From: Brevundimonas sp.
GTDB lineage: Bacteria; Pseudomonadota; Alphaproteobacteria; Caulobacterales; Caulobacteraceae
Length of the DNA: 64,000 bases
Assembly: GCF_004296955.1 (NCBI RefSeq)
Contig: NZ_SCVB01000055.1
Strand: one strand, 5' to 3'
Of this stretch, positions 1,275 to 55,771 are shown in pieces (position 1 is the first letter of the stretch; each line of letters starts with the position of its first letter). The position numbers and the translations under genes are program-made. Below the pieces are notes generated by a model. The model saw only the letters and a program-made list of their open reading frames with translations. It was not told the origin of the DNA and made no database searches.

Positions 1275-2036
1275 GTGCTGACCGTGAAGGACGCCCCGTC
1301 CCCCAATTTCGACGCCCGCCGCGGCCCGCCCGACATGCTGGTGCTGCACTATACCGGCATGCGCACCGCCGATGAGGCGGTGGCCCGGCTGCGCGATCCC
1401 GAAGCCAGGGTCTCGGCCCACTATGTCGTCGACGAGGACGGCTCGATCCTGCGGCTGGTGGCCGAGGAGCGCCGCGCCTGGCACGCGGGCAAGGGCGGCT
1501 GGCAGGGCGAGACGGACTGCAACGCCGCCTCGATCGGCATCGAGATCGTCAATCCGGGCCATGAGTTCGGTTATCGCGACTTCCCCGAGGTCCAGATCGA
1601 CGCCGTGATCAGCCTGGTCAGCGACATCCGCACCCGCTGGACCATCCCCGACGCCCGCATCATCGGCCATTCCGACTTGGCACCCGAGCGCAAACAGGAC
1701 CCCGGCGAGCGGTTTCCGTGGAAGCGGCTGGCCTCGGTCGGACACGGCCTGTGGTTCGAGCCCGCGCCCGAGCGGATCGCGGCCTTGGGCGCGCCGCTGG
1801 GCGTCGGCGACGAGGGTCTGGGCGTGATCGTCCTGCGCGCCGGCCTGCACCGGCTGGGCTACGCCCTGACCCCGGGCGGTGAATATGACGCGGCGACCCG
1901 GCTGACCGTGGAGGCCTTCCAGCGCCACTGGCGGCCGGGGCAGGTGGACGGGATCGCCGACGGCGAGACGCGGGCCACCCTGATGGGCGTGCTCCAGCTG
2001 GCGACGGCGGAGAGCGTGACGGGCGTGTTGAACTAG
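1275..2036 (+). CDS. N-acetylmuramoyl-L-alanine amidase (Amidase_2, AmpD/AmiD-like) with C-terminal peptidoglycan-binding domain
   Basis: LVLHYT, VSAHY, RAWHAG, SIGIE, IIGHSD…RKQDPG, AFQRH motifs; GTG start at 1275 (track start 1023 is a GC-rich extension). Confidence 0.92.
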   Translation: MLTVKDAPSPNFDARRGPPDMLVLHYTGMRTADEAVARLRDPEARVSAHYVVDEDGSILRLVAEERRAWHAGKGGWQGETDCNAASIGIEIVNPGHEFGYRDFPEVQIDAVISLVSDIRTRWTIPDARIIGHSDLAPERKQDPGERFPWKRLASVGHGLWFEPAPERIAALGAPLGVGDEGLGVIVLRAGLHRLGYALTPGGEYDAATRLTVEAFQRHWRPGQVDGIADGETRATLMGVLQLATAESVTGVLN

Positions 2037-2123
2037 AGGAAAACGTTCTCCCTCCCCCGAAGTGGGGAGGGACGGCGAGCCGTCAGGCGAGCCCGGGTGG
2101 GGAATTCCGCCGCTTGCGCTGTA

Positions 2124-2152
2124 TTGATAAAAACAGCCAAAGATTGTATAGT
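2124..2152 (+). promoter_or_regulatory. Sigma70-type promoter of the DUF559 gene
   Basis: TTGATA(2124-2129)-N17-TATAGT(2147-2152) in an AT-rich patch. Confidence 0.7.
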
Positions 2153-2172
2153 ATATGCAATCGGAGGAAGCT

Positions 2173-2553
2173 GTGGATTCTGCAGTCGAAAGGGCGCGCG
2201 CCATGCGAAAGGCGATGACGCCGCCCGAGTTGAGGCTCTGGAAATCACTGCGGCGGCTGCGCGCCGAGGGCCGACATTTCCGACGGCAGACGCCTTTTCG
2301 GGGCTATTTTCTGGACTTTGTTTGCCATCGGAGCCGGCTGGTGATCGAGGTCGATGGACAGATGCATGAGCATCGCGCGGAGCATGACCGGACCCGTGAC
2401 GCCGTGCTTCTTCGACAAGGCTACCGCACCCTGCGCTTCACCAACGAGGCGGTGCGGGATCACATCGACTGGGTGATGGACCGGATCAGGACCGAGCTTG
2501 CCGCCGGCATACCCCACCCGGGCTCGGCTTCGCCTCGCCGTCCCTCCCCATGA
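2173..2553 (+). CDS. DUF559 endonuclease-domain protein (Vsr/PD-(D/E)XK-like)
   Basis: RARAMRKAMTPPELRLW, HFRRQ, LDFVC, LVIEVDGQMH, D..RD..L…GY..LRF; GTG 2173 follows GGAGG (ATG 2155 lies upstream of the likely TSS). Confidence 0.88.
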   Translation: MDSAVERARAMRKAMTPPELRLWKSLRRLRAEGRHFRRQTPFRGYFLDFVCHRSRLVIEVDGQMHEHRAEHDRTRDAVLLRQGYRTLRFTNEAVRDHIDWVMDRIRTELAAGIPHPGSASPRRPSP

Positions 2554-2603
2554 AGGGGAGGGAGAACGTTGACGCCGTCTCCCGAAAAGCCCACCTAGCC
2601 CCC

Positions 2604-2977
2604 GTCAGACGGCCGGGCGGTCGCGGCGGGGGCTTGCTCCGTCGAGGAAAGTCCGGGCTCCACGGTGAAGAGGCGGCGGGCAACACCCGCCCGGGGCGAC
2701 CCGAGGGATAGCGCCACAGAAAGCAAACCTCCGGCCTTGCGAGGCCGGTAAGGGTGAAAGGGTGGGGTAAGAGCCCACCGCGTGCCTGGCAACAGGGACG
2801 GCATGGCAAGCCCCGCCTGGAGCAAGACCGAATAGGGATGTCGCGCGGCTTCGGCCGCAGGGTTCACCGCCCGAGGCGTCCGGGTAGGTCGCGAGAACCA
2901 TCCGGCGACGGGTGGTCCAGAGGAATGATCGTCACCGCTTTCGGGCGGTACAGAACCCGGCTTACAGGCCGTCTGAC
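2604..2977 (+). ncRNA. rnpB: RNase P RNA (type A)
   Basis: GAGGAAAGTCCGGGCTCC, AGCGCCACAGAAA, GGTAAGGGTGAAAGGGTGGGGTAAGAGCCCACC, ACAGAACCCGGCTTA; P1 ends GTCAGACGGCC/GGCCGTCTGAC. Confidence 0.98.
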
Positions 2978-3039
2978 ATTATTTTTGGGGCGCTAACGTT
3001 CGCGACGCGGTCGCTCACTGCTTGAGCGCTGCCTGGGCG

Positions 3040-3216
3040 CTAGAAGCGCTTGCGGGCCTTGTCGGCGGCGTCGATCAGCCGGAGGCCGGAGATCTCGGCC
3101 GCGTCCGCCGTCAGATCCATGGCGGCTTCCGGCGGGTCCTTGACGACCACCGCCCCGTCGACGGCCCGGGGGGACATCGGCTTGGTCGGGTCAGAGGGAA
3201 CAGGCTTGTCTGGCAT
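3040..3216 (-). CDS. 58-aa small protein absent from the ORF track
   Basis: MPDKPVPSDPTKPMSPRAVDGAVVVKDPPEAAMDLTADAAEISGLRLIDAADKARKRF*; host-like codons; GGAAC-N16-GGTT promoter just upstream. Confidence 0.7.
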   Translation of the reverse strand: MPDKPVPSDPTKPMSPRAVDGAVVVKDPPEAAMDLTADAAEISGLRLIDAADKARKRF

Positions 3217-3348
3217 GGCTGCAAAACCCGCACCGCAGGCGAGAGTTCCGCGAGACGGGGAGGCCGTCGTGGCGAACCGCCCGCGCCGTTAACCCTTTGG
3301 CCCGTATTGCGGCGCAGGATTGGTCCACAGCCTGTTTATACTATCGAT

Positions 3349-3363
3349 GTTCTGTGTATGTTC
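3349..3363 (+). promoter_or_regulatory. Alphaproteobacterial LexA box
   Basis: Exact GTTC-tgtgtat-GTTC, 6 nt after TATACT (3337-3342). Confidence 0.6.
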
Positions 3364-3414
3364 ACGGCGTTACAGGCGGGTTCGCCGCATTTCAGGTTAA
3401 CCGGCGTCAACTAA

Positions 3415-3450
3415 TCCCATTGAGACCCATTTCATCCCATGCTATCCCAG
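3415..3450. promoter_or_regulatory. MraZ operator (four CCCA repeats at 10-bp period)
   Basis: CCCA at 3416, 3426, 3436 and 3446, i.e. TGGG repeats on the minus strand, upstream of mraZ. Confidence 0.8.
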
Positions 3451-3534
3451 ACGCTTGGCGCGGGGTTGGTTTGCGCCGCGTGATGTTCACGGGGATCAGA
3501 GGGGCGGATCGAAGGATCCGAGTTGGGGCAGGGC

Positions 3535-3969
3535 GTGTTTCTCTCGACCTACGAGAAACAGTTGGACGGGAAGCGACGCCTGCTGATCCCGCAGGAGTTC
3601 CGCACCGCCGACAATGGCGCCGAGCACGGCGTCTTCTGCTTCTTCGCCCTCGCCGACGATTGTCTTGAAGCCGGCGGCGACCGGCTGATGGCCGAATATG
3701 TCGCCCGGATCGAGGCCCTGCCGTTCGGCAGCGACAAGCGCACCGCCCTGGAAGAGACCTTCTACGCCGGCCAGCGCCCGCTGTCGTATGACGGCGGCGG
3801 CCGCATCACCCTGCCGGAAAGCCTGTGTCAGGACGCCGGCCTGGGCGAGGATGTGGTCATCGTCGGCCTCGGGCCGCGCTTCCAGATCTGGGATCGGGCG
3901 CGCTGGAAGGCCCGTCTCGGCGGGCGCCGCGCCCTCGCCCGCCAGGTCATGAACGGGGAGGAGGCATGA
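3535..3969 (+). CDS. mraZ: Division/cell wall cluster transcriptional repressor MraZ
   Basis: [17 protein letters not shown] and D..GRI.LP repeats; first gene of dcw cluster; GTG start. Confidence 0.95.
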
Positions 3970-4931
3970 CCGCGCCCCACGCCCCCGTGCTGCTGACTGA
4001 GGTGCTGGAAGCCTTGGCCCCCCGCGCCGGCGACGTAATCATCGACGCCACCTTCGGCGCCGGCGGCTATACCCGCGCCATCCTCGCGACCGGGGCGACG
4101 GTCATCGCCCTGGACCGCGACCCGACGGTGCAGCCGTACGCCGACGCCGTGGCCAACGACTATCCGGGCAAATTCCGGCTGGTTCGCACGCCCTTCTCGG
4201 GTCTCGCCCAGGCCTTCGCCGACAGCGGCGAAGCGCGGCTGGACGGGGTGGTGTTCGACATCGGCGTCTCGTCGATGCAGCTGGACCAGGCCGAGCGCGG
4301 CTTCTCCTTCATGCGCGACGGGCCGCTGGACATGCGGATGTCGGAGGAGGGCGAGACCGCCGCCGACATCGTCAACGGCTGGGACCACGGCCCGCTGGCC
4401 CATATCTTCAAACTGTACGGCGACGAGCGCCAGTCGGGCCGGGTGGCCACGGCCATCCTGCGCCGCCGGGCCGAGCGGCCGTTCGAGCGGACCCTCGATC
4501 TGGCCGAGGTGGTCGAGAAGGCCCTGGGCGGACGTCGCGGCGCGCCGATCCATCCGGCCACGCGGGTGTTCCAGGCCCTGCGCATCGCCGTCAACGACGA
4601 GCTGGGCGAACTGCGCGCCGGGCTGGAGGCGGCCGAGGCGGCGCTGTCTCCCGGAGGCCGGCTGGCGGTGGTCACCTTCCATTCGCTGGAGGACCGCATC
4701 GTCAAGGCGTTCCTGACCGAGCGGACCGGCAACGCCCCCGGCGGCTCGCGCCATGCGCCGGTCGCGGTCGAGACCCGCAAGCCCAGCTTCACCCTGTCCT
4801 TCAAGGGCGCGCGCGAGGCCGGCGAGGCGGAGCGGGCGGACAATCCCCGCGCCCGGTCGGCCAAGCTGCGCGCCGCGGTGCGCACCGACGCCGCTCCCTG
4901 GGGCGCCTTCGGGGGGAGGATCGCCGCATGA
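3966..4931 (+). CDS. rsmH: 16S rRNA m4C1402 methyltransferase
   Basis: [57 protein letters not shown]. Confidence 0.98.
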
Positions 4932-49208: not shown

Positions 49209-50909
49209 GTGCTGACCGCCCTCTCCATCCGCGACATCGTGCTGGTCGATGTGCTGGACCTCGAGGTCGACGGCGGCCTGACCGTCCTGACCGGCGAGAC
49301 CGGGGCCGGCAAGTCGATCATCCTCGACGCCCTCGGCCTCGCCCTTGGCGCGCGGGCCGACGCCGGCCTGGTGCGGGCGGGAGCCAAACAGGCCTCGGCC
49401 ACCGCCGTCTTCACCGCCCCCGACGACCCGGCCCTGATCGCCATGATCAGCGAGCGGGGCTTCGACGTCGCGCCCGGCGAGGACCTCATCCTGCGCCGGA
49501 CGCTCGCCGCCGACGGCCGCAGCCGCGCCTTCGTCAACGACCAGCCGGCGGGGGTGACCGCCCTGCGCGAGATCGGCCAGGCCCTGGTCGAGGTCCACGG
49601 CCAGCACGAGACCGTCGGCCTGCTGGACTGGAAGACCCACCGCGCCCTGCTCGACGCCTACGGCGGCCTGCAGCCCCAGCTGGACGGCGTCGCCGCCGCC
49701 GCCGAAAAGCTCAAGGCCGCCGAACGCACGGTCTCCGACCTCAAGGCCGCCGCCGCCGACGCCGCCTCGCGGGCCGAGGAACTGACGCAGAACCTCACCG
49801 ACCTCGACGACCTCGACCCGCGCGCCGACGAGGAGACCGAACTGGCCGGCGAACGGGCCATCCTCGGCGCCGCCGAAAAGGCCGTCGCCGACCTCGCCGA
49901 CGCCCGCGCCTCCCTGGGCGGGGACAAGCTGTCCCAGAAGCTGTCGGCCGCCCTGCGCGCGGTCGAGCACGCCCGCACCCGGGCCGGGCAGGCGGGCACG
50001 GACCCCGAACACCCCCTGCTGCAGAAACTGGCCGCCGCCGCCGAGGCCATCGACCGCACCATGGTCGAGGCGGAAGAGGCCATCGCCTGCGTCGACGCCG
50101 CCGCCAACGCCTTCGACTTCGAGCCCGGCCGCCTCGACAAGGCCGAGGAGCGGCTGTTCGCCCTGCGCGCCGCCGCCCGCAAGCTGAACACGTCCGTCGA
50201 CAGCCTGCCCGTCCTGCGCGTCCGTTTCCGCGAACAGCTGCGGCTGATCGAGGACGGCGCCGAGGCCATCAGCGTCGCCGAACGCGCCGCCTCCGCCGCG
50301 CGCGAGGCTTATGACGTCGCCGCCATGCTGCTGACCTCGGCGCGGGAAGCCGCCGCCGACCGGCTGACCGCCGCCGTGATGGAGGAACTGGCCCCGCTGA
50401 AACTGGAGCGCGCCCGCTTCCGCGTCGCCTTCGAGCCCGTCGCCGAGGGCCGTCGCGGCCCGCTGGGCGTCGAGACCGTCCGCTTCGAGATCGCCACCAA
50501 CGCCGGGACCGCCTTCGGCCCGCTGGACGCCATCGCCTCGGGCGGCGAACTGGCCCGTTTCGCCCTCGCCATGAAGGCGGCCCTGGCGGGGCGCGAGGAC
50601 CAGCGCCAGCCGGTGATGATCTTCGACGAGGTCGACCAGGGCGTCGGCGGCGCCGTCGCCTCCGCCGTCGGGGCGCGGCTTGAGCGGCTGGCGCACGGCG
50701 CCCAGGTGCTGGTCGTGACCCACAGCCCCCAGGTCGCCGCCCGCGGCCACGCCCACTGGAAGGTCCGCAAGGCCGACGCCGGCGGGGTGACCACCACCAC
50801 CGTCGATACGCTGGACGACGAGGCGCGGCGCGAGGAGATCGCGCGGATGCTGTCGGGCGCGGTGGTCACCGACGAGGCGCGCGCGGCGGCGCGGTCGCTG
50901 ATCGGGTGA
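49209..50909 (+). CDS. recN: DNA repair protein RecN
   Basis: LTGETGAGKS, VHGQHE, ASGGELAR..LA.K, IFDEVDQGVGG, VTHSPQVAA. Confidence 0.98.
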   Translation: MLTALSIRDIVLVDVLDLEVDGGLTVLTGETGAGKSIILDALGLALGARADAGLVRAGAKQASATAVFTAPDDPALIAMISERGFDVAPGEDLILRRTLAADGRSRAFVNDQPAGVTALREIGQALVEVHGQHETVGLLDWKTHRALLDAYGGLQPQLDGVAAAAEKLKAAERTVSDLKAAAADAASRAEELTQNLTDLDDLDPRADEETELAGERAILGAAEKAVADLADARASLGGDKLSQKLSAALRAVEHARTRAGQAGTDPEHPLLQKLAAAAEAIDRTMVEAEEAIACVDAAANAFDFEPGRLDKAEERLFALRAAARKLNTSVDSLPVLRVRFREQLRLIEDGAEAISVAERAASAAREAYDVAAMLLTSAREAAADRLTAAVMEELAPLKLERARFRVAFEPVAEGRRGPLGVETVRFEIATNAGTAFGPLDAIASGGELARFALAMKAALAGREDQRQPVMIFDEVDQGVGGAVASAVGARLERLAHGAQVLVVTHSPQVAARGHAHWKVRKADAGGVTTTTVDTLDDEARREEIARMLSGAVVTDEARAAARSLIG

Positions 50910-51024
50910 CCCGGTAGCGGCCGTGTGTGTTGCTGAAAGCGGACGGTCCGGAGGTCGGCTATGGGGGGTTAGCGGACATGGAGGAGCGTTTGCTGCCGAC
51001 TCCTAGAGCGAATATAGCCGGGAT

Positions 51025-51342
51025 ATGGAAGTCGCTCTCATATTCCTGCTCACGATCAGCTTCGGGGTGGCCTCGATCGCCCTGACCTTGGCGACTGTGT
51101 CGCGCATCAGTCGCTGGGCGGAGGGGCGTTACGTCCCGAACCTAGGGAAAAACAGGGCGGCGATGCGCATGATCCCGAAGGCGCAACTAATCGCGGTCTA
51201 CCTCGCGTTCGCGCTCGTCCTTTTTGCGTTCCTCGCTTGGAATTGGTCTGCCGGGTCGGTGAAATCTGCTAGCGCCATCTTGGGTCTAATCGCGCTCGTC
51301 TATATCGGCTGGTTCTCGATCCGGTGGCGACATCTCCGATGA
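51025..51342 (+). CDS. Small 3-TM hypothetical protein (cassette 1)
   Basis: 105 aa, atypical codons; TTGCTG-N17-TATAGC-N6-ATG suggests a leaderless transcript. Confidence 0.7.
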   Translation: MEVALIFLLTISFGVASIALTLATVSRISRWAEGRYVPNLGKNRAAMRMIPKAQLIAVYLAFALVLFAFLAWNWSAGSVKSASAILGLIALVYIGWFSIRWRHLR

Positions 51343-51418
51343 GCCACATTTGAGACCCTGCTCACGGCAACGTCTGACGTCCGCAATGGGTCGGAAGCAG
51401 ACAACGCCGCATGGGTAG

Positions 51419-51631
51419 CTAGCGGACGACCTCGTCGCGCTGCTTCTGCTTGAACGAGCGGAAACCCACCATCCAGTTGAACGCCATGAGCAGAAACCAA
51501 GCCGCCCAAGCGGGCCACCAGTTCGTCATCAGGATTGGGACGAGAACCACCACGAAGGCACCGAGGTTCAGCCTCATCAGCCACCTCGGTGTGCGATCTC
51601 GCATGTGATAGGCGACATCCATGATGCTCAT
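51419..51631 (-). CDS. Small 2-TM hypothetical protein (cassette 2)
   Basis: 70 aa, Trp-rich and hydrophobic; stop codon inside a hairpin unit. Confidence 0.65.
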   Translation of the reverse strand: MSIMDVAYHMRDRTPRWLMRLNLGAFVVVLVPILMTNWWPAWAAWFLLMAFNWMVGFRSFKQKQRDEVVR

Positions 51632-51707
51632 GCGGCCTTATCCCCCGTGAGCCGCAATGTCCGCAATGGGTCGGGAGCGGACTGTCGCGTGAGAGTGGGT
51701 AGCGAAC

Positions 51708-51968
51708 CTATCCGATCCGGTTCGCAATGTGGGTGCGGTAGCGTCGCTCCACTGCCGTGCCCGTCTGATAAAGCGCCAGCCCAATGAGAATGAAGGCGGC
51801 TCCGCCGGCCAAGTTCACCGCCCACAGCTTCATGTCATTCGAACGCATGAGCCAAGGTAGATTGGTCATTGTGATGAGGATGGCGACAACTGCGAAGGCG
51901 ACACCGAACCATCGCATCCAAGCGATTATGAACAGATAGTAGTTCTGGATCGAAGTCGGCTTTGCCAT
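51708..51968 (-). CDS. Small 2-TM hypothetical protein (cassette 3)
   Basis: 86 aa from MAKPTSIQNYYLF; stop abuts a hairpin unit. Confidence 0.7.
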   Translation of the reverse strand: MAKPTSIQNYYLFIIAWMRWFGVAFAVVAILITMTNLPWLMRSNDMKLWAVNLAGGAAFILIGLALYQTGTAVERRYRTHIANRIG

Positions 51969-52051
51969 TCCGATAATGTGAACGACACCTCGGCGGATGC
52001 CAACGTCCGCAATGGGCCGGGAGCGGACGGTCGCCTGAGGGCAGGAAGCGG

Positions 52052-52312
52052 TCATTCGCCGCCGTCGCTCAGGTCGAGGCCGCTACTCTCGTGTCGCCCT
52101 GATCTGTGGTTCCGGCGCTCGAACACGGCGCCAATGACCGCGCACACACCGAAGACCGCCAGGGCGGCATAGGCGACCGGACTGTCCGCCCGTCCTGTAA
52201 GGACACAAAACAGGCCGACAGCCCAGGCGGGCCACGCCACGCCGACAACCAAAACCCTCAGCCACAGGGGCAGAGACCGCAACCATGCTGCAACGGATGT
52301 TTTGGTCGCCAT
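52052..52312 (-). CDS. Small 2-TM hypothetical protein (cassette 4)
   Basis: 86 aa from MATKTSVAAW; stop overlaps the end of a hairpin unit. Confidence 0.68.
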   Translation of the reverse strand: MATKTSVAAWLRSLPLWLRVLVVGVAWPAWAVGLFCVLTGRADSPVAYAALAVFGVCAVIGAVFERRNHRSGRHESSGLDLSDGGE

Positions 52313-52423
52313 AGCTACAGCTTGGAGGTGGGGCCGGGACGCCCGCAACGCCCTGAAACCCGACGGTTACGCCCGCGCGGCCAGACGACAGTCCCTTCGC
52401 CGGCCGAACGGACCTGAACAACG

Positions 52424-53809
52424 CTATTCCTTCGCCTTGGCCGACCCCTTCGTGGCCCGCTCCACCACGGCCTTGCCGGCGTCGGTCTGGGCCAGCCCCT
52501 CCAGCATCGCGCCGAGGGCCTGGCCGCCCTTCGCGCTGAACACGTCGGTGATGCTGTTCATGCCCGCGGGCACGTCGCCGCCGGTCACGATCACCTTGAT
52601 GTCGGCCTCGCTCAGCGCCTGGGCCTGGGCGACGCCCACGGTCTGCCCGGCCTTGATCTGCTCCACGCGCACCAGATAGGTCTGGTAGCCCTCGTTGCCG
52701 CCGATCTCCCGGGCCAGTTCGATCTGCGTCGAGACCGGCGCCAGAAGCAGCAGCCGCTCGGCCTCGGCGCGGCTCTGGCCCTGCGCCAGCAAGCCTTCGG
52801 CGTCGAGCTTCTGCTGCGCCAGGGTGCCCTGCGCGACCAGCTCCAGCCGCTGGCGCTCCGCCTCGGCGGAGATGACCTGCTGCTGGCGCTGGCCCTCGGC
52901 CCGGATGACCGTGACCTCGCGCTCCTGCGCGGCCTGGACCTCCGCGACCCCCTTTGCGATGTCGGCGGCGCGCGTATCGGCGACCAGCTTCACATCCATC
53001 TCGCGTTCGGTGGTGACCTTCTGGGCGACCAGAACCTCCTGCTCGGCGACCTGTTTGGCGATGCCGACCTGCTTTTCCTGCTCGGCCGTGCGCATGCCGA
53101 CCTGCTGCAGGGCGTCCTGCTGGTTCACCTCGACGATGCGCTCGGCCTCGATTTCCTTGGTCCGGGCCATCTGGCTGTTCATCGCCACGGCTTCGCGGCT
53201 CTCGCGGTCGATGCGGGATTTTTCCTTCGCCATGATGTTGGCGATGACCTGGGAATTGGCGCTGTCGCGGATGTCCATGAACTCGATGTTCTTGACCGTC
53301 TCCACGCCCCACGCCTGAAGCTGGTTGTCCACCTGGGCGGTGAAGGCCTCGGCCAGGGTCGATCGGGCTTCGAGGATGTCCTCGAGCTTGTGGGTGGCCA
53401 GAACGTTGCGGACGGCGCCCTGGAGAATGCCGGACAGCTGGTGCTGCAGTTCGTCGAAATTGGCGACCTTCTCCGCCGCCGTGTCCGACTTGGCGATCCG
53501 CATGAAGGCCTGCACGTCGACGCGGAACGGCAGGCGCCCGGTGTCGTAGGCCTCGTAGTCCTTCAGGTTCACGTCAAAGATGGAGACCGGAAATTTGGTC
53601 ACCAGCACGCCGATGCTGGGCAGGAAGGCCGGCCACTCATAGTAGACGTTTCCGGCTTCCTGACTGGCGCCGTAGCTGACGCGCGAGCGGCCGCGCTGGA
53701 CGATGTGAACCTCGTTGGTCGGGACCACCCGGCGCAGAACCAGCGCAATCAGGAATCCAAAGGCGAACACGCCGAGCGCGACGCCGCCGGCAACGAAATA
53801 CATGATCAT
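52424..53809 (-). CDS. SPFH/flotillin-family protein
   Basis: N-terminal TM, RRVVPTNEVHIV, SPFH-like domain, Ala/Glu/Gln-rich coiled coil; GGGGGA RBS before ATG 53809. Confidence 0.88.
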   Translation of the reverse strand: MIMYFVAGGVALGVFAFGFLIALVLRRVVPTNEVHIVQRGRSRVSYGASQEAGNVYYEWPAFLPSIGVLVTKFPVSIFDVNLKDYEAYDTGRLPFRVDVQAFMRIAKSDTAAEKVANFDELQHQLSGILQGAVRNVLATHKLEDILEARSTLAEAFTAQVDNQLQAWGVETVKNIEFMDIRDSANSQVIANIMAKEKSRIDRESREAVAMNSQMARTKEIEAERIVEVNQQDALQQVGMRTAEQEKQVGIAKQVAEQEVLVAQKVTTEREMDVKLVADTRAADIAKGVAEVQAAQEREVTVIRAEGQRQQQVISAEAERQRLELVAQGTLAQQKLDAEGLLAQGQSRAEAERLLLLAPVSTQIELAREIGGNEGYQTYLVRVEQIKAGQTVGVAQAQALSEADIKVIVTGGDVPAGMNSITDVFSAKGGQALGAMLEGLAQTDAGKAVVERATKGSAKAKE

Positions 53810-54045
53810 GGAATCCCCCGATACTCGCCGGACTATGTCCACAAAACCCGGGCGTCGCAACTATCGCGGGAGGCTGCCCGCCGGCGGCTCGCTCCTGGCC
53901 GCCTTGACGTGAAGGCCAGCAGAGACGGTCGGCTCAGGCTCACATGTCCGCAATGGCGGCGGACGTCGCGCGTTCGGCGGATCCCCGACTTTCGGCGGCC
54001 TGTCGATCGCCTCGACCCGCCGCGCTCCTGATCTTCCCCGTAGGG

Positions 54046-54477
54046 TCAGACCAGGTCGGCGGGGCGGTGGTAATGTTTTTCCGCATCATGCAATATATTC
54101 AACAAGATGCTCACGACCTGTGCGGCCGTTCCGTCCTGGGTGACGATGTTGAAGGCCTGTTGACTGAGCGGAGTCCGGTCGGGTCTGGCCATGGCCCAGC
54201 TCGGGAACAGGCGTTGTTTGATCGGCCACTCATTCAGGACGATGACATCCTTGTGTCTCTTGTCCGCCCTGATGCGCGTCATGAGTTCGTCCAGCTTTTG
54301 AGCGTCACCTTCGAGCACTTGAACGAATTTGCCATCCGGGTGAGCGAGGCAGCCCGTGATCTTGTCTCGCCGGTTGTTTCTGACCGAGCTCGTGAATATT
54401 GCATCGAGCGCAGCGACGTCATCGTCGGCTATGGTCGCCGTGCTCCTGTAAACGATCCGCCGCAGAGATTTCGTCAT
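54046..54477 (-). CDS. Stand-alone BLUF blue-light photoreceptor
   Basis: IVYRS (Tyr), RNNRR..ITG (Asn), FVQVLEG (Gln), D.RH, F..WAM (Trp/Met). Confidence 0.92.
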   Translation of the reverse strand: MTKSLRRIVYRSTATIADDDVAALDAIFTSSVRNNRRDKITGCLAHPDGKFVQVLEGDAQKLDELMTRIRADKRHKDVIVLNEWPIKQRLFPSWAMARPDRTPLSQQAFNIVTQDGTAAQVVSILLNILHDAEKHYHRPADLV

Positions 54478-54967
54478 GAGGAGATCCTTCCGGGCGCCTG
54501 CAGACCCAGGTTGGGACCCTAGGCGCCAAGCGGGCTCTCTCAATGACCTGGATCAAGCCGTCCCTGATCGGTCCAGGCGGGCGGGCGCCGGGGTCCGCGC
54601 CGAAGGCCGGAAATCCCCTCCGCCCAGGTGTGTATTCCCGCCCCGTGTCTTCTCGCCCCTTGAGGACCGCGATGCGCCACTTCCGCCCCTCCGGCGCGCG
54701 CCGGAATCGGTCCCGCGACCGTTTCTGACGCAGGCCCGTGCATAATGGTGAAATGCCCGCCGGGCCTGGGTCTTTGACATTGCATGAACCGTCGCCGCCA
54801 CCGCCAAGGGGCCGGCGAAGCGTCCTCAGCGGGCGATGCCTGACTGGCGGACTTCCCAGCCGACATTTTTTGTCCGGAATGCGAGACTCTCTGCCCTTCG
54901 GTTGAAGGCCGCGAGGTTGCTGATCCGGCAGTGCGCGTCCCTTCTCCGGCAAGGGGAAAAGGAAGAC

Positions 54968-55771
54968 CTACCCCCGCAGGACCTTCAGCAGCTGCGGATG
55001 CAGCTCCGAGTTCGTCGCCAGGATCTGGGCCCCCGTCTCGGGCCGGCCCTCGCCGTCGATGGTGGTGACCACGCCGCCCGCCTCGGTGACGAACAAAATG
55101 CCCGCGGCCACGTCCCAGGGGCTCAGGTTGCGCTCGTAGTAGGCGTCGTACCGCCCCGCGGCGACCCAGGCGAAGTCCAGCGCCGCCGAACCCAGCCGGC
55201 GGATGCCGGCGACGCGCTGGCCGACGGCGTGGATGTCCTTGATGGCCTGGGCATGCCCCGTCTTGCCGATGAACGGCAGGCCGGTGGCGATCAGGCTTTC
55301 CGACAGATCGCGCCGGCCGGCGACGCGGATGCGCTGGTCGTTCAGATAGCAGCCCTTGCCCTTCTCGGCCCAGAACAGCTCGTTCATGACGGGGTTGTAG
55401 GTCACGCCGGCGACGATCTCGGACGACCCGTCCGGCGCCGTGCGCTGCAGCCCCACCGTGATGGCGAAATGGGGCATGGCGTGCATGAAGTTGGTGGTGC
55501 CGTCGATCGGGTCGACGATCCACATGTGGGACTTGTCCGTCCCCTCGATCATGCCGCGCTCCTCGCCCAGGAAGCCGTAGCCGGGGCGGGCCTTCATCAG
55601 CAGTTCGTAGAGGGTGTCCTCGGCCCGGATGTCGGCGGCGGTGACGAAGTCGCCGGGCCCCTTGCGCGAGACCTGCAGCTGGGCGACCTCGCCGAAGTCG
55701 CGCAGCATGGGCCGGGCGGTCTTGCGGACCGCGTCCAGCATGACGGTGACGAGGGCGGAAGCGAGGGCCAT
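54968..55771 (-). CDS. suhB: Inositol monophosphatase family protein SuhB
   Basis: RDFGEV..LQVSRKGPGDFVT, GEE, WIVDPIDGTTNF, RRLGSAALD, WDVAAG. Confidence 0.95.
   Translation of the reverse strand: MALASALVTVMLDAVRKTARPMLRDFGEVAQLQVSRKGPGDFVTAADIRAEDTLYELLMKARPGYGFLGEERGMIEGTDKSHMWIVDPIDGTTNFMHAMPHFAITVGLQRTAPDGSSEIVAGVTYNPVMNELFWAEKGKGCYLNDQRIRVAGRRDLSESLIATGLPFIGKTGHAQAIKDIHAVGQRVAGIRRLGSAALDFAWVAAGRYDAYYERNLSPWDVAAGILFVTEAGGVVTTIDGEGRPETGAQILATNSELHPQLLKVLRG

Follow-up and report, generated by a model that had tools for sequence, protein, structure and literature searches.

An array of small genes between recN and suhB

The window analysed here is a 64-kb (64,000-nucleotide) stretch of a Brevundimonas sp. 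contig. Just downstream of recN, whose stop codon lies at 50907-50909, it carries four small ORFs, a flotillin gene and a BLUF gene, a cargo that the earlier note had described correctly. Between these genes lie copies of a 24-nt unit in which two inverted 9-bp arms, GTCCGC-WWT and RRA-GCGGAC, flank an asymmetric 6-bp centre. Two kinds of centre occur, GGGTCG (A) and GGGTGG (B). Scores below are from a covariance model (CM).

50930-50977, + strand: entry composite of the array, immediately behind the recN stop; it joins the remnant of a short palindrome (TTGCTGAAAGCGGAC, 50930-50944) through 9 nt of spacer (GGTCCGGAG) to the unit listed next
50954-50977, + strand: lone B-type unit GTCGGCTATGGGGGGTTAGCGGAC in the recN/P1 gap (23.2 bits, E 0.0012)
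51025-51342, + strand: ORF P1, 105 aa, predicted small membrane protein
51379-51427, + strand: A·B doublet 1 (57.2 bits, E 6e-12); A unit 51379-51402 (centre GGGTCG), B-position unit 51403-51427 (centre degenerate)
51419-51631, - strand: ORF P2, 70 aa, predicted small membrane protein
51659-51707, + strand: A·B doublet 2 (68.7 bits, E 9e-15); A unit 51659-51682, B-position unit 51683-51707
51708-51968, - strand: ORF P3, 86 aa from the ATG at 51968, predicted small membrane protein
52005-52053, + strand: A·B doublet 3 (74.5 bits, E 3e-16), the top match of the whole data set; A unit 52005-52028, B-position unit 52029-52053
52052-52312, - strand: ORF P4, 86 aa from the ATG at 52312, predicted small membrane protein
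52341-52413, + strand: three tandem degenerate 24-25-nt units in the P4/flotillin gap, found by alignment
52392-53874, - strand: flotillin (SPFH/Band_7) module; gene 52424-53809 (Pfam PF01145, E 3e-16)
53877-54630, - strand: BLUF module; gene 54046-54477 (Pfam PF04940, E 6.5e-28)
53946-53989, + strand: truncated A unit plus a degenerate second unit in the flotillin/BLUF gap; the truncated unit GTCCGCAATGG-CGGCGGAC (53946-53964) is 19 nt long and misses five centre bases (20.8 bits, E 0.0046)
54930-54967, no strand assigned: native terminator-like hairpin of the recN/suhB intergenic region, beside suhB, matching the empty sites L013 and L018

The units had been placed at these positions and in one orientation by the earlier note; all are indeed on the plus strand, and their occurrence is far beyond chance. 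Three gaps contain strong 49-nt doublets and the other three contain degenerate copies. The spacing of about 25 bp between unit ends was also confirmed and arises because two related 24-nt units lie in tandem. The exact 12-mer GTCCGCAATGGG occurs three times in the window, always in this array, and just six times in the 3.1-Mb genome. In doublet 1 the stop codon of P2 falls within the right arm of the B-position unit. The units of the P4/flotillin gap were too degenerate to give a match in the CM scan of the window; the orthologous spot in the relative L014 scores 25.8 bits, and the last unit of the gap ends in AACGGAC at the left edge of the flotillin module. The truncated unit at 53946-53964 has an exact 13-mer, ATGTCCGCAATGG, in common with the strong units. 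T-tract terminators are absent at the units, in agreement with the reported lack of a poly-U tail, and a profile search found no PF00589 recombinase on the contig, in agreement with the reported lack of a nearby integrase.

The DNA of the small ORFs has 57-60% GC compared with 69.5% for the genome, and searches of Pfam and PHROG gave no match for P1-P4 (70-105 aa). Among 80 recN loci of relatives, P1 has no homologue and the sole relative of P3 is a 37% match in L010. The flotillin module is common only to L086 (94%) and L014 (91%), with homology stopping at 52392 and 53874, and the BLUF segment is missing from both. The hotspot includes the flotillin and BLUF modules, though these are bounded by degenerate units only.

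The recN-suhB interval in relatives

In the empty sites L013 and L018 the entire intergenic region matches the hairpin at 54930-54967, and all DNA from the recN stop to about 54930 is therefore inserted. Comparison of this interval, as the earlier note had advised, revealed that close relatives differ completely, from an empty site to 6 kb. The interval is empty (8-43 bp) in L013, L035, L037, L038 and L045, and in other relatives it spans 0.6-6 kb with 2-6 units and differing contents. A CM scan of the recN loci (1.2 Mb) placed 32/32 matches just downstream of recN, and the entry composite recurs after recN in L010, L015, L016, L019, L033, L034 and L086. The empty sites carry no unit, which counts against the mechanism proposed below, as entry of the first module would lack a site.

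Distribution and order of the units

The unit family is specific to Brevundimonas, being present in 20/24 genomes of this genus and in 0/16 genomes of other genera in the order. Copy number ranges from 2 to 38 per genome; the source genome has about 20, in clusters of one orientation between housekeeping genes, and the complete genome G023 has 38, with its largest arrays at 8. A model scan suggested by the earlier note found that the units do not lie dispersed as solo REPs but cluster at many loci around single genes that vary. In 80 unit-to-unit intervals the median length is 496 bp, each filled by one ORF. The cassette genes face both ways (38 minus, 29 plus) and the units keep one orientation.

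The arrays follow a simple order. Of 14 arrays, 12 open with a lone B unit and most close with a lone A, and the uninterrupted arrays of the source genome fit the same rule. Since the arrays read B-gene-A·B-gene-A, the module can be written as [B-gene-A]. With such modules, the first unit of an array would be a single B and the last a single A, and adjoining modules would form A·B doublets, hence the 25-bp period.

Anatomy of the units and position of the junctions

The units had previously been read as hairpins, and we rejected this reading. Across 78 copies we found no compensatory changes; 80.6% of cells pair (80.2% after shuffling), and 43 of the 78 lack the 9-27 pair. Folding is weak, with z-scores of +0.2 to -2.7. 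The supposed loop, GGGTCG, is the most invariant part of the unit, each position being kept in 72-78 copies and five of the six in 77-78. The left arm GTCCGC is kept in 72-77 copies, and variation is found at positions 7-9 and 16-18, flanking the centre. With this arm-centre-arm layout in two kinds, the units look like double-stranded core sites of tyrosine recombinases.

Several cassettes occur in more than one array. The segments 7603-8324 of L002 and 6785-7506 of L005 match at 98%, as do 8518-9035 of L001 and 7497-8014 of L005, and a cassette is shared by L033 and L098 at 97%; the adjoining DNA is different in all three pairs. We mapped the junctions of these three non-syntenic pairs and of three contig-graph branches by the six variable marker positions per unit. 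Identity of the cassette pairs begins or ends between unit positions 9 and 17, and the assembly graph of the source genome branches at the same spot; cassettes shared between arrays have their breakpoints within units, as had been anticipated, with the junctions in the 6-bp centre. By the C64/C44 junction the exchange lies no earlier than position 16, and by another junction no later than 15, which is compatible with a staggered exchange region of 6-7 bp, short of proof. The junction at L001 8504 looks like an A/B hybrid.

A candidate recombinase in relatives

The earlier note had placed the enzyme elsewhere, and a candidate does adjoin arrays in relatives and is absent from the source genome. 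It is a 214-aa PF00589 protein consisting of the catalytic domain only; comparison with the PDB gave no close match, and its best NCBIfam matches are weak and Xer-type. Three near-full-length copies exist in the genus, two intact and one with an in-frame TAG stop. All three share one layout: directly after the gene come a short palindrome, 9 nt of spacing, a B unit and then a co-oriented array. This is the layout of the recN entry composite, here 3' of the recombinase stop codon (L001, L007 and L101). At 27 array loci no other recombinase adjoins an array, save two serine recombinases in islands of G023.

Of 76 metagenomic homologues, 24 (about a third) have the motif AGCGG[AT]C in the 150 nt that follow the stop codon, at a density of 2.28 per kb versus 0.21 per kb elsewhere (p = 1.5e-17). 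An E. coli plasmid carries a 58%-identical gene with 24-nt units whose outer arm hexamers are near-identical and whose centre is different. Beside ten more distant alphaproteobacterial homologues (53-64% identity) we looked for GTCCGC/GCGGAC units and found none. Within the genus the intact gene is present in just 2/24 genomes, with remnants in 4 more; it is absent from the source genome, which makes the recN-suhB array an orphan, and from most element-rich relatives (G005, G016, G009). Its presence does not follow element number, which counts against it. From its adjacency to arrays, the 214-aa recombinase is the probable array enzyme.

Proposed mechanism and alternatives

We favour, with a probability of roughly 0.6, the explanation that the units are double-stranded site-specific recombination sites of single-gene cassettes and that a tyrosine recombinase of the 214-aa type is the probable enzyme. 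The results support the earlier proposal that they are recombination sites of a cassette system and not attC sites, CRISPR or terminators. Strand exchange would occur within the asymmetric 6-bp centre, and the mobile module would be one gene preceded by B and followed by A. Two directly oriented like sites would recombine to excise a circle of one gene and one A·B junction; in the reverse reaction the circle could insert at any like site. Incompatible A and B centres would permit cassette swapping by two exchanges, one between B sites and the other between A sites. The enzyme, about 200 aa with a match to the catalytic domain only, may itself be encoded on a module ending in a B unit and travel on plasmids and islands, and the orphan array at recN-suhB would be reshuffled only when it arrives in trans.

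An unlikely alternative keeps the units as recombination sites and assigns them to host XerC/XerD or another conserved host recombinase, with the 214-aa gene as cargo. The source genome has both XerC and XerD, most array-bearing genomes are without the 214-aa gene, the unit layout is typical of Xer-type sites, and pdif modules are likewise said to lack a dedicated recombinase gene. However, the dif candidate AATGCGCATAA-GAGATA-TTATGCGAAAT shares with the unit, in register, only about 4/11 arm positions per side and differs in its centre, and an adjoining B unit at 3/3 near-full-length 214-aa genes is unexpected for random cargo. Similarly improbable is a genus-specific REP/BIME-like repeat that accumulates in intergenic DNA of foreign origin and low GC, with cassette boundaries at the repeats only as a by-product of homologous or illegitimate recombination between short copies. 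The units are short imperfect palindromes, strictly intergenic, at many loci of one genus, and any recombination between repeats puts breakpoints inside them; yet there are just 2-38 copies per genome, clustered, co-oriented and in strict B...A order, and base pairing is not conserved. The REP-associated transposase RAYT is absent from the source genome and occurs in 1/16 genus genomes. Invariant runs are at most 6 nt (up to about 9-10 nt between any two copies), and runs of 6 to about 10 nt are too short for efficient RecA recombination; nonetheless 6/6 mapped junctions lie at the same 6-9-nt spot.

We consider it very improbable that the units serve as expression signals, such as operators, insulators, promoter elements or RNA-processing hairpins, and were duplicated along with small paralogous genes. 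Almost all cassette ORFs do have a unit directly at their start or stop codon, and some reverse complements of the A arm read TTGCGG, like a -35 box, but the cassette genes are mutually unrelated and not paralogous, unit orientation is constant while genes face either way, and the units show no sigma-70 or terminator consensus, Rfam match or covariation. Identical cassettes in different arrays and empty sites would also be left unaccounted for. A diverged integron cassette array with unusual attC sites, that is, a cluster of attC sites without integrase (CALIN), would agree with the single-gene cassettes, the repeated sites and the lack of an integrase next to the array. This reading is effectively refuted: 0/61 genus genomes have an IntI above the TIGR02249 cut-off, the units are without RYYYAAC/GTTRRRY boxes and the long imperfect attC palindrome, and the cassettes have no orientation bias. 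Alphaproteobacteria are moreover reported to be without integrons and CALINs (PMC4889954).

Comparison with known systems

Our literature search found no published description of a system such as the cassette system proposed here. The pdif (Xer) modules of Acinetobacter plasmids, reportedly described by Blackwell and Hall in 2017, have 28-bp dif-like XerC/XerD sites in inverted orientation. Both systems have discrete gene modules between short arm-centre-arm tyrosine-recombinase sites, in many contexts and with no dedicated recombinase adjacent; the Brevundimonas sites differ in being not dif-like, co-oriented, of two centre types, chromosomal and linked in relatives to a dedicated small recombinase. 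Minimal tyrosine recombinases of the FimB/FimE type, of about 200 aa, act at short inverted-arm sites to invert a promoter segment. Enzyme size and inverted-arm sites are alike, but FimB/FimE are not known to be linked to cassette arrays. In Neisseria, the short palindromic dRS3/NIME repeats (6-N8-6) bound variable intergenic gene modules between conserved genes, and the proposed mechanism is either phage integration by a Piv-like enzyme or transformation followed by homologous recombination. Together with minimal mobile elements, they resemble the Brevundimonas arrays in having repeats at the edges of variable modules, but sequence, copy number and proposed mechanism differ and they are not known to follow a B...A order.

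Cre/Flp cassette exchange with heterospecific lox/FRT sites is an engineering concept in which the same arms carry two different 6-8-bp centres flanking a segment, so that like recombines with like. The Brevundimonas arrays also have two site types with equal arms and different centres around a segment, as a natural array and not a laboratory design; we found no description of a natural system built in this way in the literature.

The resemblance to integrons and CALINs lies in arrays of mostly single-gene, largely ORFan cassettes between repeated recombination sites (PMC4889954), in cassettes common to different arrays with junctions in the site, and in a recombinase gene at one end of some arrays, beside a special first site. 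Recombinase-less orphan arrays are common in both, and the array at recN-suhB is analogous to a CALIN. Unlike integrons, with their 57-141-nt folded single-strand attC sites and one platform, Brevundimonas has 24-nt arm-centre-arm units of two kinds in small arrays scattered over many chromosomal loci, and the candidate enzyme of about 200 aa is without the IntI-specific insertion. Because the cassettes face either way, there is also no common Pc-type promoter logic. The arrays point to integron-like gene shuffling in a class reported to be without integrons.

The recN-suhB array and its repeats

The window is C76:17961-81960 of a Brevundimonas assembly of 3.12 Mb (114 contigs, 69.5% GC). Its array lies directly downstream of recN and comprises four small cassette ORFs, P1-P4, predicted to encode small membrane proteins, followed by two larger genes.

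50907-50909: stop codon of recN, array directly downstream
51025-51342, plus: P1
51419-51631, minus: P2
51708-51968, minus: P3
52052-52312, minus: P4
52424-53809, minus: SPFH/flotillin gene
54046-54477, minus: BLUF gene
54968-55771, minus: suhB

The P1-P4 stretch has a GC content of 57-60%, compared with 69.5% for the genome, and Pfam and PHROG searches of the four ORFs gave no match. A repeat search of the window recovered a 50-nt family at 51375-51424, 51655-51704, and 52001-52050, with a 13-mer at 53944-53956 as an additional member. The exact sequence GTCCGCAATGGG occurs three times in the window, all within the array, and six times genome-wide. With a covariance model trained on 15 genomic copies of the repeat, three doublets in the window scored 57-74.5 bits, and units were found after recN (50940-50982, E 0.0012) and before the BLUF gene (53941-53994, E 0.0046). 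The units at 52341-52413 are too degenerate for a model score; the orthologous place in L014, the recN locus of a relative, does score. Tandem Repeats Finder reported no 25-bp tandem in the window because the copies are too diverged. Repeat search and covariance model together confirm the repeats that the earlier note had placed between these genes.

Beside the suhB stop, a ~270-nt non-coding stretch (54613-54898) is 72-81% conserved in at least six other Brevundimonas species, independently of what adjoins it. The stretch has no Rfam match and contains a TTGACA box, GC hairpins, and a CATTTTTT run, features that make it a candidate small RNA.

Anatomy of the unit

Seventy-eight copies drawn from about ten genomes give the consensus AAY GTCCGC WWT GGGTCG RRA GCSGAC N GTCGCC TNA GGGYGG RAA GCGGAC. 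Each 24-nt unit consists of two inverted arms round an asymmetric 6-bp centre, GTCCGC-WWT / GGGTCG / RRA-GCSGAC (9 + 6 + 9 bp); in the doublet's second unit, which has diverged from the first as a copy of it, the centre is GGGTGG. Units were sorted by centre sequence into kind A (GGGTCG) and kind B (GGGTGG), the tandem doublet being A·B. The consensus has an almost constant left arm and centre, and one variable position in the right arm.

The earlier note had described the units as hairpins, a label that proved wrong. The supposed loop, GGGTCG, is conserved in 72-78 of the 78 copies at each position (77-78 at five of the six), variation in the 3' arm is uncompensated, and one stem pair, 9-27, is unpaired in 43 copies. 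Overall pairing equals that of shuffled sequences (80.6% and 80.2%), and neither RNAalifold nor pair counts detected covariation. Single-strand folds are weak, at -6 to -9 kcal/mol with z-scores of +0.2 to -2.7, and their stems are 6 bp and their loops 12 nt. Read from the sequences, this conservation pattern is the signature of a putative protein-binding arm-centre-arm site and not of a selected stem-loop. Simple tyrosine-recombinase core sites of the lox, FRT, or dif type share the layout of inverted arms and asymmetric centre, and the Brevundimonas units are probably recombination sites.

Other functions for the repeats were considered. An RNA element is contradicted by the lack of covariation and by an Rfam scan at E up to 10 that returned only chance microRNA-type matches. 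As intrinsic terminators the units fail because their folds are weak and no terminator-like site, with a GC-rich stem and T-tract, lies at any of them, while for promoters the consensus site is absent at the units.

Distribution and array grammar

An nhmmer search of this genome gave ~25-30 copies. Almost all of them sit between housekeeping genes, in clusters of one orientation with a spacing of 160-850 bp, and many adjoin contig ends. In 20 of 24 further Brevundimonas genomes the model found 2-38 copies per genome; in 16 genomes belonging to other genera of the order it found none. Within 1.2 Mb of recN loci, all 32 model matches lie immediately downstream of recN. Arrays reach eight units in the complete Brevundimonas genome G023 (loci L001-L007). 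Unit-to-unit intervals (n = 80) have a median of 496 bp, with 75 of them below 1 kb, and the typical interval holds one ORF whose start or stop is within tens of bases of a unit. The units of an array all face the same direction, and relative to them the longest cassette ORF is oriented minus in 38 cases and plus in 29.

Twelve of 14 arrays open with a lone B and carry internal A·B doublets, and a lone A closes most of them. The uninterrupted arrays of this genome fit the same B...A grammar; in the window the order is B (50954), P1, A·B, P2, A·B, P3, A·B, P4, and a degenerate A beginning at 52341. From this grammar it follows that the doublet is the junction between modules and that the module itself is [B-gene-A].

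Evidence for movement of cassettes between arrays

Cassettes are shared between arrays whose neighbouring genes differ. Within G023, L002 7603-8324 and L005 6785-7506 are 98% identical, as are L001 8518-9035 and L005 7497-8014, and in both pairs the neighbours differ. A third common cassette is found at 97% identity in L033, the recN-locus array of another species, and in L098 of genome G007, in non-syntenic positions. Junctions were read against the variable unit positions 7-9 and 16-18. Identity of the shared cassettes sets in past position 8 and stops at positions 15-17 of the A unit; on the left side of the L033/L098 cassette, identity starts at the B centre. Among the contigs of this genome, C77 and C10 agree as far as position 17 of an A unit, beyond which they diverge, and C64 and C44 differ up to position 16 and then coincide. 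All six mapped junctions, which represent few events resolved at variable marker positions only, are compatible with positions 9-17.

The recN-suhB interval is just 8-43 bp in five loci (L013, L035, L037, L038, and L045), in which one terminator serves both convergent genes; elsewhere it spans 0.6-6 kb, with 2-6 units and unrelated content. Among 80 recN loci, counterparts of P1-P4 are lacking except in L010, where P3 has a 37% match; the flotillin module is common only to L086 and L014, and the BLUF module (53877-54630) is absent even from these two. The earlier note had proposed that the units are recombination sites of a cassette system. This proposal is supported by interval content that differs across relatives, by shared-cassette junctions that fall within the units, and by the clustering of units in same-orientation arrays instead of scattered solo copies; the enzyme itself we infer.

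Branch points in the assembly graph of this genome (C77/C10, C64/C44, and C42/C55/C44) lie inside A units or repeated cassettes, and cassette arrays are therefore one cause of draft fragmentation. For a single [B-gene-A] insert at C8:4335-4890, comparison with the empty sites of relatives defined neither a target nor a duplication because the intergenic DNA is too variable. In genomes G006 and G001 (L193 1700-1800 and L192 1345-1500) the same intergenic site is filled by tandem ~40-nt repeats, CTCAAGTAGCGCGAAGCGCGGTAGCGC. A separate family of REP-like palindromes, TTCCGCTCATCCCCGCGAAAGCGGGGACCCAG, unrelated to the A and B units, occupies this hotspot in several species, at L020 9730-9790 and in the recN-suhB intervals of L086, L009, and L015.

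A candidate recombinase

No recombinase lies near an array in this genome, whose six PF00589 matches (XerC, XerD, three phage-type integrases, and one sub-threshold fragment) are on other contigs. A 214-aa ORF lies ahead of the largest array of G023; it matches the catalytic domain PF00589 only, has weak, Xer-like NCBIfam matches, and has no relative in the PDB. Near-full-length copies of this gene in the genus number two in G023, the second with a TAG stop, and one in G004. Located 3' of each copy is a GTCCGY-CAGAAA-GCGGAC palindrome, followed by 9 nt, a B unit, and a same-orientation array, and the three sequences diverge directly after that B unit. The same entry composite of palindrome remnant, 9 nt, and B unit opens the recN arrays of eight species, including that of the window. 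Upstream, the three copies have a common TTGGCGCATT motif, at the position of which closer metagenomic homologues carry GTCCGC-N3-TGGCGC. Judged by eye, the upstream motif suggests a third centre type, in which case the gene for the recombinase may be a module as well.

The recombinase family is represented on 440 PLSDB plasmids, among them IncF plasmids of E. coli and Klebsiella with 58% identity, and it also occurs in 13 of the 301 alphaproteobacterial genomes sampled. The right-arm heptamer AGCGG[AT]C is 11-fold enriched (p = 1.5e-17) in the sequence downstream of 76 metagenomic homologues. The closest metagenomic homologues (66-90% identity) carry full A·B or B units; across a set of 80 metagenomic homologues, adjacent whole units are rare, and strong enrichment is seen for the right-arm heptamer only. 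The 24-nt units at an E. coli plasmid copy differ little from the Brevundimonas units in their outer arm hexamers, and their centre is TCGCTC. Arm-motif units were not found beside ten distant alphaproteobacterial homologues. Among 24 genus genomes, the gene is intact in two and a remnant in four more, and its presence shows no clear relation to element number, several element-rich genomes being without it. Because it is intact in so few genomes, absent from this one, and unaccompanied by units in the ten distant homologues, we hold the 214-aa recombinase, a candidate by association, at roughly even odds of being the enzyme that acts on the units.

Copies of the small recombinase with a single in-frame TAG occur at L007 4950-4952, in G030 (two copies), and in G007, and gene fragments persist in G013, G019, and G022; together these point to recurrent decay of the gene. 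Upstream of the recombinase in L001 (G023:C1:2672000-2691999), positions 2025-4382 hold three genes, one of them a 397-aa ORF that is ThiF/E1-like by eye, and the island may be a ubiquitin-like (Bil-type) defence system. At L002 5122-5183, also in G023, an inverted entry composite lies at the left edge of a plus-oriented array and could permit inversion.

Proposed mechanism and its implications

In the mechanism that we propose, like sites in direct orientation would recombine inside the asymmetric 6-bp centre. The excised circle would contain one gene and one A·B junction and could re-insert at any A or B with the grammar restored, while the swap of a cassette would combine a B with B and an A with A exchange. 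A rare A with B event would delete 25 nt and leave a single hybrid unit, as at L001 8504. The orphan array of the window would remain static until a recombinase-bearing element entered the cell.

More broadly, Proteobacteria may own a second, integron-independent cassette system, in which ~200-aa tyrosine recombinases that match the catalytic domain only act on 24-bp sites with common arms and mutually incompatible centres (A, B, and others), such that chromosomal hotspots, islands, and plasmids exchange single-gene [B-gene-A] modules by excision, insertion, and swapping. We place the probability of this reading at about 0.45, slightly short of an even chance. If it is true, a second cassette system fills the integron niche in Brevundimonas, and most arrays are orphan stores whose mobilisation requires the passage of an element with the recombinase. 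The reading would also be relevant to the lack of integrons long noted in Alphaproteobacteria, which are reported to be without integrons and CALINs, a finding the survey authors called "extremely puzzling" (PMC4889954). Should the mechanism hold, the units would add a new class to the natural recombination sites, one whose centres are heterospecific; many islets among housekeeping genes that are labelled "hypothetical" would gain a route to annotation, and the compact recombinase-site pair could serve as a genetic tool. With sites, module grammar, and a candidate enzyme sequence in hand, the proposal can be tested directly. Our search of the full-text literature turned up no account of the sites, nor of a cassette system built on this recombinase family.

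Comparison with known systems

The textbook vehicle for storing and reshuffling single genes in bacteria is the integron. The Brevundimonas arrays share with integrons ORFan single-gene cassettes, the occurrence of the same cassette in several arrays, and hotspots that are empty or hold up to 6 kb; as with integron and CALIN cassettes, single genes move between arrays (three shared at 97-98%, with junctions at positions 9-17). The defining features of an integron nevertheless fail. The integrase IntI (TIGR02249) is above cut-off in 0 of 61 Brevundimonas genomes, where partial matches are at Xer level only. The attC boxes RYYYAAC/GTTRRRY are absent from the 78-copy consensus, whose two halves are tandem and not inverted. 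Integron and CALIN cassettes are co-oriented behind a common promoter, whereas those of Brevundimonas face either way (38 minus, 29 plus).

Xer-dependent pdif modules, considered with other mobile elements exploiting Xer (IMEX), resemble the Brevundimonas arrays in having short arm-centre-arm sites without an adjacent enzyme. In pdif modules, however, inverted sites flank the module, whereas the units within a Brevundimonas array are co-oriented, are of two centre types, and are unlike dif. Aligned in register, the candidate chromosomal dif of this genome, AATGCGCATAAGAGATATTATGCGAAAT (C46:28657, minus strand), and the unit AAYGTCCGCWAT-GGGTCG-RRAGCGGACNT match at ~4/11 positions per arm and differ at the centre. 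REP elements with a RAYT (REP-associated transposase) are rejected since this Y1 transposase (PF01797) is absent from this genome and found in 1 of 16 genus genomes; a REP/BIME assignment is contradicted by pairing at the shuffled level and by 2-38 clustered copies per genome as opposed to many dispersed stem-loops. The system is integron-like in function and, in this genome, CALIN-like: the arrays show integron-like behaviour at the population level with different sites, and with a recombinase that is probably different from that of the integron and much smaller.
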